Made by a program: the position numbers and the translations under genes. A stretch of 6,545 nucleotides of DNA, taken from a virus. Taxonomy: Duplodnaviria > Heunggongvirae > Uroviricota > Caudoviricetes. This document shows positions 1-6,545 of the stretch, one piece after another; position 1 is the first letter of the stretch, and each line of letters opens with the position of its first letter. Where the stretch lies: IMG/VR virus record IMGVR_UViG_2585427789_000011, one strand, 5' to 3'. Below the pieces are notes generated by a model that saw only the letters and a list, made by a program, of their open reading frames with translations, was not told where the DNA came from and searched no databases.

Positions 1-272
1 GACAGCAGGCTCATAAGACGCCCCAGCGTCGCCATAGTGCGTTCACCGAATACGTGCGCAACAACCGTCTTCCGGAGACTGTCATACGCGTAAAACAGCC
101 AGCGCTGGCGCGATTTAGCCCCGACATAGCCCCACTGTTCGTCCATTTCCGCGCAGACGATGACGTCACTGCCCGGCTGTATGCGCGAGGTTACCGACTG
201 CGGCCTGAGTTTTTTAAGTGACGTAAAATCGTGTTGAGGCCAACGCCCATAATGCGGGCAGTTGCCCGGCAT
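1..272 (-). CDS. insB: IS1 transposase InsB, N-terminal 90 codons only (3' end outside window)
   Basis: ATG at 272-270 (minus); translation [91 protein letters not shown] matches recalled InsB; overlaps the insA 3' end in another frame, as expected for the IS1 InsAB' frameshift arrangement. Confidence 0.85.
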
Positions 273-466
273 CCAACGCCATTCATGGCCATATCAATGA
301 TTTTCTGGTGCGTACCGGGTTGAGAAGCGGTGTAAGTGAACTGCAGTTGCCATGTTTTACGGCAGTGAGAGCAGAGATAGCGCTGATGTCCGGCGGTGCT
401 TTTGCCGTTACGCACCACCCCGTCAGTAGCTGAACAGGAGGGACAGCTGATAGAAACAGAAGCCAC
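191..466 (-). CDS. insA: IS1 InsA (transposition regulator and N-terminal part of the InsAB' transposase)
   Basis: 91-aa ORF in the track: [40 protein letters not shown]...LKNSGRSR, matching recalled IS1 InsA with its N-terminal zinc-finger cysteines. Confidence 0.95.
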
Positions 467-2266: not shown

Positions 2267-2338
2267 CGATTTCTTTATCTCTTACATCAGACGAGCGCCG
2301 GTTGCAGAATACCAGTCACAACCGGCGACAGTTGAACA

Positions 2339-3418
2339 TTAAGAATCAGCCTGACTCGGGATCAGTTTTTGCCAGATAACTGAAACGTATTTTGCCTGGT
2401 AACGGGCGTCATCAAGTGCATTATGGCGCTCACCTTCGAATGGAATAGCCGTTCTGGCATCGAAGTCTATGGCTTTCCCCAGCTCAACGATTGTGCGTAC
2501 ATCGCGATCGTTGTAGTAACGCCACGGGCAGGGGATCCCCTGCCGTTCGTATGAACGGCGCAAAATCGTGTTGTCGAAGTTGGCTCCATTTCCCCAAACC
2601 TGAACAAAAAATTCACCGGAGTTTTCGTCGATAAATTCCCGCAATTGTAACAGTGCATCATCTAACGGGATTTCATCGGTCATAATGGCAGATTGCGCTT
2701 CGCGTGATTGCTTAAGCCACCATTTAATGGTGTCCCGATCAATGACTCCGCCAGCAGTTTCCAGATCGATAGTCTTACTAAATTCCGGTCCCATATCTCC
2801 GGTTTGCGGATCGAAAAATATTGCACCTATTGAGATGATCGGGGCATCAGGATTTTTTCCCATGGTTTCAAGGTCGATCATTAGATGGTCACACGTCCTG
2901 CTGGTGGATGTGATTTCGTGATGACCGTTCACCTTAATTGAGTGATCTGCCGTCTCGCCAGTTTCATTATCGCTATTGTGATGCTGATTGCCGCCAGTGT
3001 TCTCCTTGTGTGGATGTTCAGCGCCTTCCATTTCCTCCGGATCATCTTCCTGAACTTCAACCTGATACTCTTCATCGAATGTTTCTTGGTATGTTGCGTC
3101 GCCCATCACCGCGCCACAATCAGGGCAGTTGCCGCCGCCGGTCTGACCGCAGGCGGTGCAGACTTTTTCCACTTCCTGTTGCACCACTGGTTCAGGCTGT
3201 TTCGTTTCTGGCTCGTTTTGTAACGCATTTGGGCTGTTTTGTTCCGCTTTCTGGTAGTTCCGTTCCGATTCATGCTGGTTCTGGTTCACAGAATCGCGGG
3301 TCTGGATCCCCTTAACCCATTTCGGATCATTCGGGTCACTAATCCCTTCAACAAATTCACCACGTGATGCAGCAAGCAACTTATCGGCGTCAGGCTGGCT
3401 GATATTGGCTGCCTGCAT
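2339..3418 (-). CDS. DnaQ-like DEDDh 3'-5' exonuclease-domain protein with an acidic, Cys-containing N-terminal region; 5' boundary uncertain
   Basis: C-terminal 190 aa carry Exo I (MIDLETMG), Exo II ([12 protein letters not shown]) and Exo III ([13 protein letters not shown]) motifs. N-terminal half is Q/E/D-rich with a [16 protein letters not shown] zinc-ribbon-like cluster. The track ORF extends to 3652, but the first 78 codons overlap the upstream gene and look non-coding; the ATG at 3418-3416 is the first start downstream of the upstream gene's stop, with a weak SD. Confidence 0.7.
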
Positions 3419-3434
3419 AATTTTGTTTACTTCG

Positions 3435-3779
3435 TCAGCGGTAACTTTTACCGGCTCTGGCTGTGCGGTCTTCAGAGGCACCAACATTTTGCGGTAAACC
3501 CGAGTATGTACCATTTTTGCGGGCAAAATATTCTTCTTTCGTGATTTCAGTAGCCCCAGCAGCCAGCGCCTTATCCAGACCAGAAAGTTTGTTTGCGCGA
3601 CCGTATTTTTCGCCATCCTTATCGGCGAAGAGGAAATAGAACGGCCCCTCACGCTCTACAGATGGTTCAACTTCCACCGCGCATTCAGTTTTTGCGATAT
3701 CAGATACCCGTTTCCACTGCATCAGTTTCTGGTACTGACGACGAGAGAACATCAACAGCGCCCAGATCTCTTCCTTCAT
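3435..3779 (-). CDS. Hypothetical protein (114 aa from the ATG at 3779; the track ORF begins at a GTG at 3788)
   Basis: ORF 3435-3788, translation ...[90 protein letters not shown]... with balanced composition. Its 3' part overlaps the long exonuclease-frame ORF. No recognisable family. Confidence 0.5.
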
Positions 3780-3799
3780 CTCAAACACGCCCTTTGTAG

Positions 3800-4804
3800 T
3801 CAGGTATTCGCAATATATTTGTTCAGTGCCACAGGATCTTTGTGAATGTCGATCGGACGCTCACGGACAAGGCCAAAAATAGTCTGGCGGTCGTAGCGAA
3901 GGGCATCAGGCTGTTTGCGCATCGATGCCGAGATACGCTTCCAGTCTTCGCGGTCGTTGTCGATAACTTCATTTTTTGCCCAGCGATGGATGCTGCCGTC
4001 AATGTTTCCGGCATCCACATCACCAGGCCAGAGAGCGTAGGCCAGTTCGTCATCCAGTGTTTTCCATGTCTGCTTGTATTCGCGATGAATGGCAGCAATG
4101 ACCGGGCTGATTTTTCCTGTTGAATTTTCAGTGTACTGTTGATTGGCTCTGGCGCGGGCGAGATCAACAACAGACGTGTATTTTCCGGTTTCCTTGCGTT
4201 CACCTTCGCGACGTTTTTTCCAGATGCGCATCTCTGCCTGAATTTCGGGCCATTTGGCACTAGGAATACATTTATGCTTAACCCACCCGATGGCATGCAG
4301 CTTAAGCTCCGGATACATGGCGTTAACTTCTGGCATTTTCATCAACGCTTCAACGATATGTCCGTCGAATGTTGCCATGTCTTCCTGCAACAATTCCTGC
4401 GCGCTAATCACCATATCAACGGTGATGTTTTCACATGTACCGAACTTAACCAGGACCGCGTTCTGTACTTCAAGGGACAGCTTGTCAAAATTGACGATCA
4501 TCGGATCGGATTCTGGTTCGACCGGGACAAAGGAAGCGCCTTCCTCATCCCAGCGGTTTTCCAGCATATATTCGGTATCCCAGGAGTCGATGGCAGGGCG
4601 GGGCATGCCGGGTTTATCCTCGCAGACAAGAAATTTATAAGCGCAGTCCTGAGCAGCCGGATATTGCTCCAGGAATTGCCAGGTAAATTTGGCACGGGCG
4701 CGACGTTCGTCGCCGGCTTCAATGGCAGTGGCTACAGCGACTGCACCTTCTTCCTTTATTGCCTGTTCGTCCGGAATGGCGGCGCAAATAAAGACTTTAC
4801 TCAT
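3800..4804 (-). CDS. Hypothetical prophage protein, 334 aa (sits where ydfE lies relative to ydfD/dicB in K-12 Qin, by recall)
   Basis: Long ORF with protein-like composition (MSKVFICAAIPDEQAIKEEG...), GAGG about 11 nt upstream of the ATG, same strand and tight spacing with flanking genes. The antisense 230-aa ORF is F/H/C-rich and looks spurious. No motif recognised by eye. Confidence 0.7.
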   Translation of the reverse strand: MSKVFICAAIPDEQAIKEEGAVAVATAIEAGDERRARAKFTWQFLEQYPAAQDCAYKFLVCEDKPGMPRPAIDSWDTEYMLENRWDEEGASFVPVEPESDPMIVNFDKLSLEVQNAVLVKFGTCENITVDMVISAQELLQEDMATFDGHIVEALMKMPEVNAMYPELKLHAIGWVKHKCIPSAKWPEIQAEMRIWKKRREGERKETGKYTSVVDLARARANQQYTENSTGKISPVIAAIHREYKQTWKTLDDELAYALWPGDVDAGNIDGSIHRWAKNEVIDNDREDWKRISASMRKQPDALRYDRQTIFGLVRERPIDIHKDPVALNKYIANT

Positions 4805-4884
4805 TTTGTTTTAACCTCATTACAGATTTAAGGGTGAACAAATCCCTGCCATTGCTGGCATATAAAAATGAAACCGGATATTAA

Positions 4885-5088
4885 TTACGGTGCTGTTTTA
4901 AGTCCTGCCGGGATTTCGTTATTATCCATGTGAATAACTTTATCGACCGGATAACAGTTACCGGGAATTTTCTGTTCCGCTGCGGCAACCATGCATTCTT
5001 TCATTGAGCCGTATACGCCAGTAACCATGTCAACCGGTTCACCGGAAACAAGAAAAACCGTCAGAACAAGTGCAAATGTAGTATTCAT
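4885..5088 (-). CDS. ydfD: YdfD-like small membrane protein (prophage lysis-type protein), 67 aa
   Basis: Translation MNTTFALVLTVFLVSGEPVDMVTGVYGSMKECMVAAAEQKIPGNCYPVDKVIHMDNNEIPAGLKTAP has an N-terminal hydrophobic segment. Start ATG 5088-5086 overlaps the dicB TGA stop (ATGA), with AAGGA 8 nt upstream. Identity by position immediately downstream of dicB and recalled Qin gene order. Confidence 0.65.
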   Translation of the reverse strand: MNTTFALVLTVFLVSGEPVDMVTGVYGSMKECMVAAAEQKIPGNCYPVDKVIHMDNNEIPAGLKTAP

Positions 5089-5273
5089 TGCCAGCATCCT
5101 TTTTGCATCAGGCGTAAACGGGCCAGCATTGAAACAATGCATATTTTATTTAATAGCTCCCGTTCTTGTTTTCTCTTGTTAATGGCATCTTCAGTAAATA
5201 CTGGGTTACTGATAGTGACACCAATTTCAAAACAACCTTCAGACGTATTAACGTTTGGTAATAACGTTTCCAT
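5085..5273 (-). CDS. dicB: Cell-division inhibitor DicB (activates MinC-dependent inhibition of FtsZ), 62 aa
   Basis: From the ATG at 5273: METLLPNVNTSEGCFEIGVTISNPVFTEDAINKRKQERELLNKICIVSMLARLRLMQKGCWQ, near-identical to recalled K-12 DicB (MKTLLPNVNTSEGCFEIGV...). GAGGA SD at 5281-5285, 7 nt upstream. The track's longer ORF (to 5345) is an in-frame upstream extension without an RBS. Confidence 0.85.
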   Translation of the reverse strand: METLLPNVNTSEGCFEIGVTISNPVFTEDAINKRKQERELLNKICIVSMLARLRLMQKGCWQ

Positions 5274-5290
5274 TATCGCGTCCTCAACAA

Positions 5291-5446
5291 TGAATTTTGT
5301 GATGCGGCGCCTGGTGCCTCCAGGTGACGTTAACCAGTAAACCATTAACGCCGGATTGTTAGTTGATGTCTGTTACGCAAGTAAAAGACCGCTTGTTTTA
5401 ACTGTTCCGCGTGCGCTGAGCCGCATTCACCGCATCACAAAATTCA
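5291..5446 (-). promoter_or_regulatory. 17-bp perfect long-range inverted repeat in the dicF-dicB spacer; candidate RNase III processing duplex or translational control structure in the dicB 5' UTR
   Basis: Plus 5291-5307 (TGAATTTTGTGATGCGG) is the exact reverse complement of plus 5430-5446 (CCGCATCACAAAATTCA). One arm abuts the DicF terminator, the other lies 6 nt upstream of the dicB SD. A 17-mer repeat is not expected by chance in 6.5 kb. Confidence 0.45.
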
Positions 5447-5450
5447 CTTT

Positions 5451-5493
5451 AAAAGGGGCGGGTATCACGGGAAAAACAAAACGAATACCCGCC
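5451..5493 (-). terminator. Intrinsic terminator forming the DicF 3' end
   Basis: 9-bp stem GGCGGGTAT (5457-5465) / ATACCCGCC (5485-5493) with a 19-nt loop, followed on the minus strand by CC-UUUU. Confidence 0.55.
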
Positions 5494-5509
5494 AAAAGGT
5501 AATCAACAT
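5451..5509 (-). ncRNA. dicF: DicF-like small regulatory RNA (Hfq-dependent inhibitor of ftsZ and other targets in K-12), variant sequence
   Basis: Minus-strand sequence CAUGUUGAUUACCUUUUGGCGGGUAUUCGUUUUGUUUUUCCCGUGAUACCCGCCCCUUUU lies about 180 nt upstream of dicB, matching the recalled K-12 dicF-dicB spacing of about 185 nt. It shares the UUUGGCGG...GUUUU...CCGUGA...GCCGCCC-UUUU pattern with recalled K-12 DicF. The 5' end is set by analogy, not determined. Confidence 0.6.
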
Positions 5510-5790
5510 GGGTTGTTGTAGCGGAGTTGTCACTCAGGCGTATGGTCAACCTGACAACCCGGTGTCCTCAACGGGGAAGGAATAACCCCGCCATACTTAC
5601 CGCCGCGCCATTTCGCGGAGTGCCACAACCGGAAGCGCACGGTCGACGAAAATTTAACGACAGGCTATCTATGAACCAGCAACCTCGCCGTGCGCTTTCG
5701 CGTTATGCTCTGACTTTTCAGAGAAATATCCTTTCAGTAAACTGTCAGTGCCGGATGTTCACCCGTGGAGAACTCCTTAATTACCAACCC
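5509..5790. other. G+C-rich, hairpin-dense non-coding segment (candidate structured RNA or regulatory/recombination region); strand unknown
   Basis: About 60% G+C by hand count over 5521-5640, against AT-rich flanks. Perfect stems at 5526-5532/5552-5558 (7 bp), 5572-5576/5586-5590 (5 bp), 5603-5607/5614-5618 (5 bp) and 5633-5642/5688-5697 (10 bp, 45-nt spacer). No minus-strand ORF longer than about 15 codons; the only plus-strand ORF is Arg-rich with rare Arg codons. Confidence 0.4.
5715..5743 (+). promoter_or_regulatory. Weak candidate sigma70 promoter for the 77-aa gene
   Basis: TTTTCA (5715-5720), 17-bp spacer, TAAACT (5738-5743); 4/6 match to each consensus hexamer. Flanked by short repeats CTGAC/GTCAG and CTTTTCAG/CTTTCAG. 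By-eye call only. Confidence 0.2.
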
Positions 5791-5802
5791 TCAGGAGGGT
5801 GA

Positions 5803-6036
5803 ATGTTAAAATCAACTCTTATTGCTAAATGCCTTTATCAAAATCGCATGGTAAGCAGCATTTCAATAGGCGAGTCTGCAGTTAAAAGTATTTTCGAAGA
5901 GTACTTTTCCGGGCATGATTTTAATAAATGGAATACCAAATTACCGCCAGCAGTTTCAACGCGTATTCTGAAAGCAACTGAAAGAGCAAGTACAATTCGC
6001 GTTAACTATTTCATTAAAGATTTGTGGGATCTTTGA
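5803..6036 (+). CDS. Hypothetical small protein, 77 aa, transcribed opposite to the dicB operon
   Basis: ATG 5803 preceded by AGGAGG (5793-5798, 4-nt spacer); AT-rich coding sequence MLKSTLIAKCLYQNRMVSSISIGESAVKSIFEEYFSGHDFNKWNTKLPPAVSTRILKATERASTIRVNYFIKDLWDL; no similarity recognised. Confidence 0.55.
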   Translation: MLKSTLIAKCLYQNRMVSSISIGESAVKSIFEEYFSGHDFNKWNTKLPPAVSTRILKATERASTIRVNYFIKDLWDL

Positions 6037-6421
6037 TATCCACAGAGCCTAAAGTATGTGCATATGGATGTGCTATTGTGCGCCCTCGCAGATTTGCATC
6101 ATTTTCTAAATTCACTGAACGAAACAGGGCATCAACAAGGCTCTGTACAATGCAAAGGCAATCGAAGACTGTCGCCGTTTCTGTTTTGATTGATGAAAGA
6201 ACATGGCCATTCACGCAAACAGAAATTACCCGTTTATTAACATCGCTTTCCTGCTTTTGATTATCAGAACCATATAGCCCAGAAAAAGCATTGCGCACAT
6301 TACGAACCATATTATCGATGGTTTCTTTTTTGGTGTATGCCGGGTCAATTTTCACCAGACTATCACCGAGTGTCGTTGCAGCAATTATCTGGATTTCTTT
6401 TGGTAAATCTTTAAATTCCAT
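6014..6421 (-). CDS. Hypothetical protein, 135 aa, convergent with and overlapping the 77-aa gene by 23 nt
   Basis: ATG 6421 with GAGG 7 nt upstream; translation MEFKDLPKEIQIIAATTLGDSLVKIDPAYTKKETIDNMVRNVRNAFSGLYGSDNQ... protein-like; no HTH or other motif recognised. Not DicA-like despite the same length. Confidence 0.6.
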   Translation of the reverse strand: MEFKDLPKEIQIIAATTLGDSLVKIDPAYTKKETIDNMVRNVRNAFSGLYGSDNQKQESDVNKRVISVCVNGHVLSSIKTETATVFDCLCIVQSLVDALFRSVNLENDANLRGRTIAHPYAHTLGSVDIKDPTNL

Positions 6422-6443
6422 TATTAGCCTCGTTGGTTAACCA

Positions 6444-6545
6444 TTAACGTGGGTATGTAATCATTCTGGCAATGCTTAATGCCGCTGCTTTTTCCAGATT
6501 GGTGATATCCTGCTCCAGAGCGGACAGATTTTCAGCCTGCTTAGC
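6444..6545 (-). CDS. 3' end (33 codons) of an upstream minus-strand gene, product unknown
   Basis: Open frame from the window edge: ...AKQAENLSALEQDITNLEKAAALSIARMITYPR* with TAA at 6446-6444, 22 nt upstream of the 135-aa gene start. Too short to identify. Confidence 0.4.
   Translation of the reverse strand, partial: AKQAENLSALEQDITNLEKAAALSIARMITYPR

Follow-up and report, generated by a model that had tools for sequence, protein, structure and literature searches.

Evidence for a conserved four-helix-junction leader RNA ahead of DicF-type terminators in Qin-like prophages, cdtI-type phages and phage P1

The DNA analysed here (the window) is a stretch of 6,545 nucleotides from a Caudoviricetes record (IMG/VR IMGVR_UViG_2585427789_000011) and comes from an E. 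coli lambdoid prophage; positions 2333-6545, the right two-thirds, are 97.5% identical to the yccA-adjacent prophage of strain FDAARGOS_1077. The relevant genes all lie on the minus strand and are read from right to left. Within a 740-nt stretch that carries no minus-strand gene, a non-coding island (5509-5790) is very probably a conserved untranslated leader of the minus-strand dicB-operon transcript, in which positions 5511-5631 (the core) form an RNA of ~120 nt organised as a four-helix junction (P1, P2, P3-P4 and P5, with a probable pseudoknot). The same high confidence extends to its distribution: a single copy per phage at the start of early operons under repressor control, in three temperate-phage groups that are otherwise unrelated, and standing 10-30 nt before a variable intrinsic terminator in nearly all variants.

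The structure was proposed on an alignment of 32 diverse core copies (A2), and pairs were counted afterwards. Helices are given as 5' arm/3' arm of the minus-strand RNA in window coordinates: P1 (5622-5629/5515-5522) closes the core; P2 (5614-5618/5603-5607) is a hairpin; P3 (5599-5602/5560-5563) closes a sub-domain carrying P4 (5586-5590/5572-5576), a variable hairpin with a CU-rich loop; and P5 (5553-5559/5525-5531) is a long hairpin with a 4-nt bulge and an 11-nt loop, accompanied by P5b (5550-5552/5536-5538). A pseudoknot probably joins GUAUGG, between P3 and P4 (5591-5596), to CCAUAC in the P5 loop (5540-5545).

Standard pairs filled 95.5% of the 1212 cells of A2 under this structure. Both sides had changed in 13 pairs (5.9±1.6 expected), a value reached by 0 of 500 column shuffles, and the cells with both-side changes numbered 33 versus 9.2 in the shuffles. 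In slid controls, with partners shifted by 1-3 columns, there were 1-4 both-side-changed pairs and pairing was 32-52%. Most of the covariation was carried by P5 (6 of its 7 pairs), where one sequence swaps the arms GGGUUGUC/GACAACCC for GGGUAACC/GGUUACCC; compensatory changes were also present in each of P1, P3 and P4, and P2 had one-sided changes only. RNAalifold, which was not given the proposed structure, returned P1, P2, P3, P4 and P5 from the homologues. P4 was the least conserved helix, and its loop always kept a UCCUY motif despite sequence turnover. On the plus strand, the 79 G.U cells would be A.C mismatches and pairing would fall from 95.5% to 91.0%, so the RNA has the sense of the dicB operon. 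A preliminary description, made from the window sequence alone, had offered a structured non-coding RNA on either strand as one option for the island; covariation supports that option for 5511-5631, with stems that are backed by compensatory changes, and assigns it to the minus strand.

A covariance model (R1) was built from A2 and scored 91-153 bits on all members of the family, with a match at 5507-5638 in the window (153 bits). Exactly one core copy was detected in every locus searched, and one in the complete cdtI genome; a second, divergent copy in the same phage, analogous to putR of phage HK022, was absent from ~1.9 Mb of loci and from the whole cdtI genome. Searches of the whole window and of the local region against Rfam at permissive thresholds gave no family for the core, only an STnc100-like neighbour and noise.

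When used alone as a BLAST query, the island matched 4419 of 5426 complete E. coli genomes and was covered to at least 80% in 3503 of them, K-12 derivatives (~95% identity) included. Its equivalent in K-12 MG1655 is the spacer between ydfC (ending at 1649041) and dicF (1649382-1649434), at ~95% identity, and in loci identical to the window the repressor gene and intact ydfA, ydfB and ydfC follow past the right end of the window (RefSeq annotation); the island is thus not the replacement for ydfABC that it had been taken for. The actual insertion relative to K-12 is a cassette of two genes, encoding 77 and 135 amino acids (aa), between ydfC and the leader. The 77-aa gene is absent from the aligned K-12 ydfC-dicF spacer and from most of the ~3500 genomes that carry the island.

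The core by itself recurred in very different contexts (BLAST). Its Qin-like carriers are Qin-like prophages and phages Tritos, Evi, mEp460 and PPompW; cdtI, 2H10, Ayreon, Stx2c-converting phages and Salmonella phage F1055 share 84-92% identity with it, and P1, P7, SJ46, RCS47, D6 and ~500 plasmid records share 77-82%. In total, the core was found in 65 phage and 511 plasmid records, the plasmids being mostly P1-like among the matches listed. Pattern scans of viral and genome collections yielded 70-75 distinct core variants and widened the host range to Citrobacter, Trabulsiella and Erwinia tracheiphila, with a decayed copy in Serratia symbiotica.

The three settings differ. In Qin-type prophages, the core and its terminator come after ydfABC and before an STnc100-like domain and dicB. 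In cdtI-type phages, the order is cI with its own terminator, an early-left promoter PL (TTGACA-16-CATAAT) with operator-like repeats, a 270-nt leader and the core, followed by a -19 kcal/mol terminator, a 19-bp long-range stem and then all the early-left genes. In P1, the core (R1 91 bits; locus L004, 2479-2615) overlaps an annotated 'dicF-like region' that follows the C1-controlled promoter Pban and precedes the tRNA genes of the ban operon; by our own estimate the core begins ~15-25 nt past the transcription start that the annotated Pban -10 predicts. Behind the P1 core stands a terminator with a UUCG cap and seven U's, the only strong one in the 2.4 kb before the tRNA genes and ban; a transcript ending there would be a discrete RNA of ~190 nt.

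DicF is among the earliest bacterial small RNAs to have been described. In the window, its position between the ydfC-side leader and dicB is occupied by a linker and an intrinsic terminator (5450-5510, minus strand; perfect 9-bp stem 5485-5493/5457-5465, UUUU at 5451-5454; fold z-score -4.16), which align to K-12 dicF with the sequence replaced; we regard this segment as a putative non-canonical DicF-like small RNA module. It had been described as dicF itself. A terminator hairpin does stand at the DicF position, but the Rfam DicF model (RF00039, gathering threshold 48 bits) matched neither the window at E<=1 nor the region 5280-5810 at E<=10, the K-12 positive control scoring 76.7 bits; the model also found nothing in P1 or phage cdtI. 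A crude test of duplex energy with the start region of ftsZ, ranked against shuffles, put K-12 DicF among the best 7%, whereas the window variant ranked at 89% and the core at 92%, neither of them better than shuffled sequence. By a simple test, a terminator followed the core in 67 of 73 variants, the other six having long-loop hairpins instead. The linker from core to terminator measured 10-30 nt, and terminator sequences were lineage-specific (DicF, window, cdtI and P1 types, and others). At least six terminator types stand behind the constant core. Prophages appear to swap a small RNA 'cartridge' behind it, and the core is better conserved than DicF itself.

In K-12, the 5' end of DicF is made by RNase E and its 3' end by the terminator or by RNase III, and both terminated DicF and a read-through dicBF mRNA are produced (PMC5069750, PMC9438474). 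We tentatively propose, at somewhat under an even chance, that the core acts in cis, as a leader RNA favouring read-through of the adjacent DicF-type terminator. The core would act on the nascent transcript and its own RNA polymerase: a fraction of the polymerases would pass the terminator into dicB/kil-type, recombination or tRNA/ban genes, and those that stop would yield a DicF-type small RNA. This is favoured because the genes past the terminator need to be expressed, because the core carriers examined have no N-type factor, and because the core is lost in a relative that encodes N. Annotation shows no N gene in cdtI, 2H10, F1055, mEp460 or Tritos, and a tblastn search of all analysed loci with three N proteins matched only Shigella phage 75/02 Stx (NC_029120.1). 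There, an unannotated N-like gene (locus L361, 4921-5190, minus strand; phrog_271, E = 2.4e-21) lies between the repressor gene and gp10, and the core is reduced to its last ~35 nt, before the same arrangement of terminator, STnc100-like domain and kil.

The effect would be exerted through the polymerase or a bound host factor rather than by a hairpin switch, since folding of truncated transcripts gave no conserved alternative pairing of the core with the terminator arms in four representative types. In transcripts truncated before the 3' arm of the terminator, the 5' arm paired only with the local linker, and these pairings differed among the four types. A more specific version is also more doubtful: that the core belongs to a new class of leader RNA which, alone or with host Nus factors, reprograms E. 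coli RNA polymerase to pass the DicF-type terminator, a second route to N-independent early antitermination, structurally unrelated to put, that would exist in K-12 Qin, most E. coli genomes and P1 and would set the ratio of DicF-type small RNA to dicB/kil-type product.

Several points weigh against this account. On the structural side, the pseudoknot has a single covarying position (U-A, U.G, C-G), its other five pairs being invariant, and the core (central 132 nt) folds no more stably than shuffles do (z = -0.2), so the evidence for the core is comparative and not thermodynamic. On the functional side, each phage has one core only, and the PR operon lacks a counterpart. Scans of the window downstream of the terminator, of the P1 leader and of the cdtI early-left region found no further strong terminators, so processive antitermination is not required, and a leaky terminator alone could account for the read-through. 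The opposition between N and the core comes from one N-positive phage examined in detail, and three queries cannot cover the diversity of N proteins. Finally, the adjacency of the core to a terminator and small RNA fits a role in small RNA biogenesis equally well.

That role is the most serious alternative, although we consider it unlikely. The core would be a processing or stability scaffold, the 5' domain of a DicF-type small RNA precursor, which positions RNase E in the AU-rich linker 3' of P1 and/or shields the upstream fragment from 3' exonucleases, with no effect on RNA polymerase. In its favour, the R1 match in K-12 ends 9 nt before the mature, RNase E-made 5' end of DicF (PMC5069750), a terminator/small RNA module lies behind the core in nearly all variants, and the AU-rich linker is single-stranded or weakly hairpinned in the folds. 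For such a purpose, however, any stable hairpin would suffice, and the 53-nt DicF works without the core (PMC5069750). A scaffold would also leave unaccounted for the near-invariant unpaired nucleotides, the four-way junction and the pseudoknot, all kept from lambdoid phages to P1 while the small RNA part was freely replaced.

Two further readings are improbable. In one, the core is a riboswitch-like or otherwise factor-sensing attenuator, responding to a metabolite, ion, tRNA or host protein, with the terminator as its expression platform. The layout is aptamer-like (a conserved, covarying multi-helix core, a variable peripheral hairpin and a variable terminator directly behind), and the P1 leader holds little besides core and terminator. 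The four representative types nevertheless had no conserved, mutually exclusive pairing between core and terminator, the terminators are self-contained and lie 10-30 nt away from the P1 helix, the downstream genes (dicB, recombination, tRNAs/ban) point to no ligand, and no Rfam riboswitch family matched. In the other reading, ranked equally low, the core is a released, trans-acting RNA: a decoy for a protein or tRNA enzyme, a base-pairing RNA acting through the CU-rich P4 loop, or a self-cleaving ribozyme. A compact four-way junction of cloverleaf-like topology, the constant UCCUY of the P4 loop, the discrete P1 product and a non-significant Rfam match of the core region to the tRNA-like mascRNA (14.3 bits, E = 5.4) speak for it. 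Against it, ARAGORN reported 0 tRNA or tmRNA genes, no Rfam tRNA or ribozyme family matched, the pairing of the core to the ftsZ start was no better than random, and P4 is the least conserved helix.

The remaining readings are effectively excluded. The preliminary description had also considered a long 5' leader of the 77-aa gene and a cluster of operators or recombination sites. A plus-strand leader or promoter would fit the fact that the island abuts the Shine-Dalgarno sequence of that gene; the idea is scarcely credible given the conservation of the island in K-12 and thousands of genomes that mostly lack the gene, the absence of any promoter-like site in a scan of the plus strand of the island, and the A.C mismatches noted above. 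Compensatory changes, which point to a single-stranded fold and not to protein-binding DNA, tell against a DNA-site cluster. Least credible of all is a protein encoded by a 91-codon plus-strand open reading frame (ORF) with a TTG start (5527-5802): this frame, a caveat to the statement that the island holds no credible ORF, is open in many homologues and overlapped by 'hypothetical proteins' in phage records, but it bears no coding signature, variable sites being spread evenly over codon positions (40/45/42 in 54 distinct homologues), indels of 1, 2 and 29 nt being frequent, and the ORF annotated over the same nucleotides in cdtI being in a different frame, and it was rejected as a gene.

Read-through by a leader RNA has precedents. 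Phage HK022 carries both putL and putR, and put RNA binds the zinc-binding domain of the RNA polymerase beta' subunit and suppresses termination. The put element, ~70 nt long, forms a V of two stems and contains a triplex (PMC9378689). Like put, the core is a cis RNA of lambdoid phages without N that lies between a repressor-controlled early promoter and terminators: it was located between an early promoter and a terminator in P1, cdtI, 2H10, F1055 and mEp460, phages in which no N was detected. The put RNA acts on the polymerase that makes it, as the core presumably would. The core differs from put in its size (~120 nt), in its four-way junction and pseudoknot, and in being a single copy without a PR-operon counterpart. 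Homology to put was rejected: R1 matched nothing in the complete genome of HK022 at E<=10.

The placement of the Qin-type core after ydfABC resembles that of EAR (eps-associated RNA) of Bacillales, a pseudoknotted intra-operon RNA of ~120 nt that promotes read-through; the taxa are unrelated and the core has no Rfam match. A functional analogue, not a homologue, of put or EAR is a possible description of the core, though we would not put it at even odds. Compared with lambda nutL and the N leader, the core shares its place in the PL leader and the long double-stranded stem before the first gene; it has a boxA-like motif of 6-8 nt only, no boxB, and no N was detected in loci with an intact core. 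With respect to DicF, the island is the stretch of the ydfABC-dicF-dicB precursor directly 5' of the small RNA, and the family model (RF00039) covers the 52-53-nt small RNA only, leaving the island outside. The P1 'dicF-like region' of GenBank is the same element as the core, annotated on sequence similarity without structure or function. Pas small RNAs were also considered and rejected, as they map near Q and the late region. By the defining features that were tested, the core lies outside put, nut, DicF, tRNA and every Rfam family. The literature searched on dicF antitermination, precursor and read-through, on 'dicF-like' and put-like RNAs and on STnc100 gave no structure or function for the core, an earlier mention in older DicF or P1 genome papers being possible, and calls the sequence before DicF only a 'long untranslated region'. 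Sequence similarity is already on record, as the P1 'dicF-like region'; the fold appears to be newly described.

Taken as a single sequence, the region is only modestly unusual. Its coordinates and general description were accurate in the preliminary description, but its G+C content is 52.8% over 5509-5790 rather than ~60%, with 58.7% in the core and 46.8% (5274-5508) and 38.7% (5791-6100) in the flanks. Over 5440-5800 (361 nt), the minus strand folded with a z-score of -2.7 and the plus strand with one of -2.5. Of the four perfect inverted repeats that had been reported, the 10-bp stem with its 45-nt loop stands as part of a longer repeat (5630-5642/5688-5700; arms of 13 nt, 92% complementary), which was the only one inside the island with a 7-nt seed; the others are 5-bp helices (P2 and P4). 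A second inverted repeat (5457-5465/5485-5493) is the terminator, outside the island.

The longer repeat forms P0, a hairpin of the Qin-type leader (5630-5700, minus strand; z = -2.55). Its 13-bp basal stem was kept in 20 Qin-type variants with a replaceable apical part, and within these 20 the stem was conserved with no compensatory change. Further 5', the leader (5701-5800, minus strand) consists of small hairpin modules that form a mosaic between prophages, as seen in the alignment with K-12 and Tritos; 31 upstream leader variants were found. The window lacks a 29-nt segment at ~5767 that is present in K-12 (locus L003, ~2580-2610) and Tritos. This segment is flanked by the direct repeat CACGGGTGA, and its sequence context suggests that it was lost by slippage. 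A boxA-like UGCUCU(U/C)U lies directly 5' of P1 in cdtI-type, Erwinia and Trabulsiella copies (loci L234, L238 and L249); in Trabulsiella it is exactly UGCUCUUU, and Qin-type copies have UGCGCUUCC at that place (window 5630-5642). At 6-8 nt only, the tie of this motif to read-through is suggestive.

Between the terminator and dicB, the spacer at 5296-5444 (minus strand) resembles STnc100 (RF02076, 29.9 bits, E = 1e-4 locally, gathering threshold 47) and is closed by a stem of ~15 bp, AAUUUUGUGAUGCGG/CCGCAUCACAAAAUU, at which RNase III could plausibly cut to give the 72-nt form of DicF. RF02076 also matched below threshold in K-12 (locus L003, 2933-3142, 34.4 bits) and in the P1 ban operon (locus L004, 1135-1254). 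In cdtI (locus L249, 33960-34040, minus strand), ACAAAACAGAGAAGAGCA straight after the terminator pairs with UGUUCUUCUCUGUUUUGU ~60 nt further on, and the long stem so formed ahead of the first gene is a counterpart by analogy to the STnc100-like stem and to the RNase III hairpin in the N leader of lambda. The terminator loop is enlarged in one sub-lineage: F1055 (locus L252, 4130-4300), Erwinia (L238), Serratia (L208) and L053. The enlarged loop holds AGGAG and a start codon, opening a small ORF (MFYRG.../VFCRD...) that crosses the 3' arm of the terminator and may couple translation to termination.

Two other observations concern individual phages. The PL leader of F1055, upstream of the core (locus L252, ~3915-3935), contains the tRNA T-arm-like sequence CTGGTTCGATTCCAG, which may be a remnant of a tRNA or of an attachment site (att). 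Right of cro in cdtI (locus L006, 4879-5080, plus strand), the Rfam models for C4 antisense RNA (68.4 bits) and isrK (60 bits) both matched above threshold, with c4-a1b1 weak; these matches suggest that a P1-like C4/ant-type immunity module is present in a lambdoid phage.

The minus-strand order inside the window is the 135-aa gene, the 740-nt gene-free stretch, dicB, a DUF1482 ydfD-like gene, an exonuclease gene, xis and int. The first gene downstream of the leader is dicB (5085-5273, minus strand; Pfam DicB E = 3e-40, RefSeq annotation), which encodes a cell-division inhibitor. On the opposite strand, the 77-aa gene (5803-6036, plus strand; phrog_10348, E = 2.7e-46; no Pfam match) begins at the right edge of the island, which adjoins its Shine-Dalgarno sequence. 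It forms a convergent pair, with ends overlapping by 23 nt, with the 135-aa gene (6014-6421, minus strand, in operon orientation; phrog_1363, E = 3.7e-47; hypothetical in RefSeq, no Pfam match); both PHROG families are of unknown function. The exonuclease frame is broken into ORFs 2339-3652, 3435-3788 and 3800-4804 (minus strand), and a close relative (locus L001; 97.5% identity, 6 gaps) has a single 823-aa exonuclease gene at this place; the window prophage may be decaying. At the left end of the window, ORF 191-466 (minus strand) presumably is related to InsA of IS1, which it resembles.

That an RNA of complex fold is conserved between Qin-like prophages and P1 suggests that a regulatory step has gone unrecognised in operons encoding toxic cell-division inhibitors, recombination functions and the ban helicase of P1. 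The setting of this RNA is E. coli K-12, most E. coli genomes and P1, beside a classic small RNA. Even if the core only guides processing, it merits a covariance model, with which the 'hypothetical proteins' annotated across it could be corrected. If it controls termination, it would explain how lambdoid phages without N, besides HK022, pass the early-left terminator and how dicB is expressed past DicF, and it would be a third structural class of antiterminator RNA.

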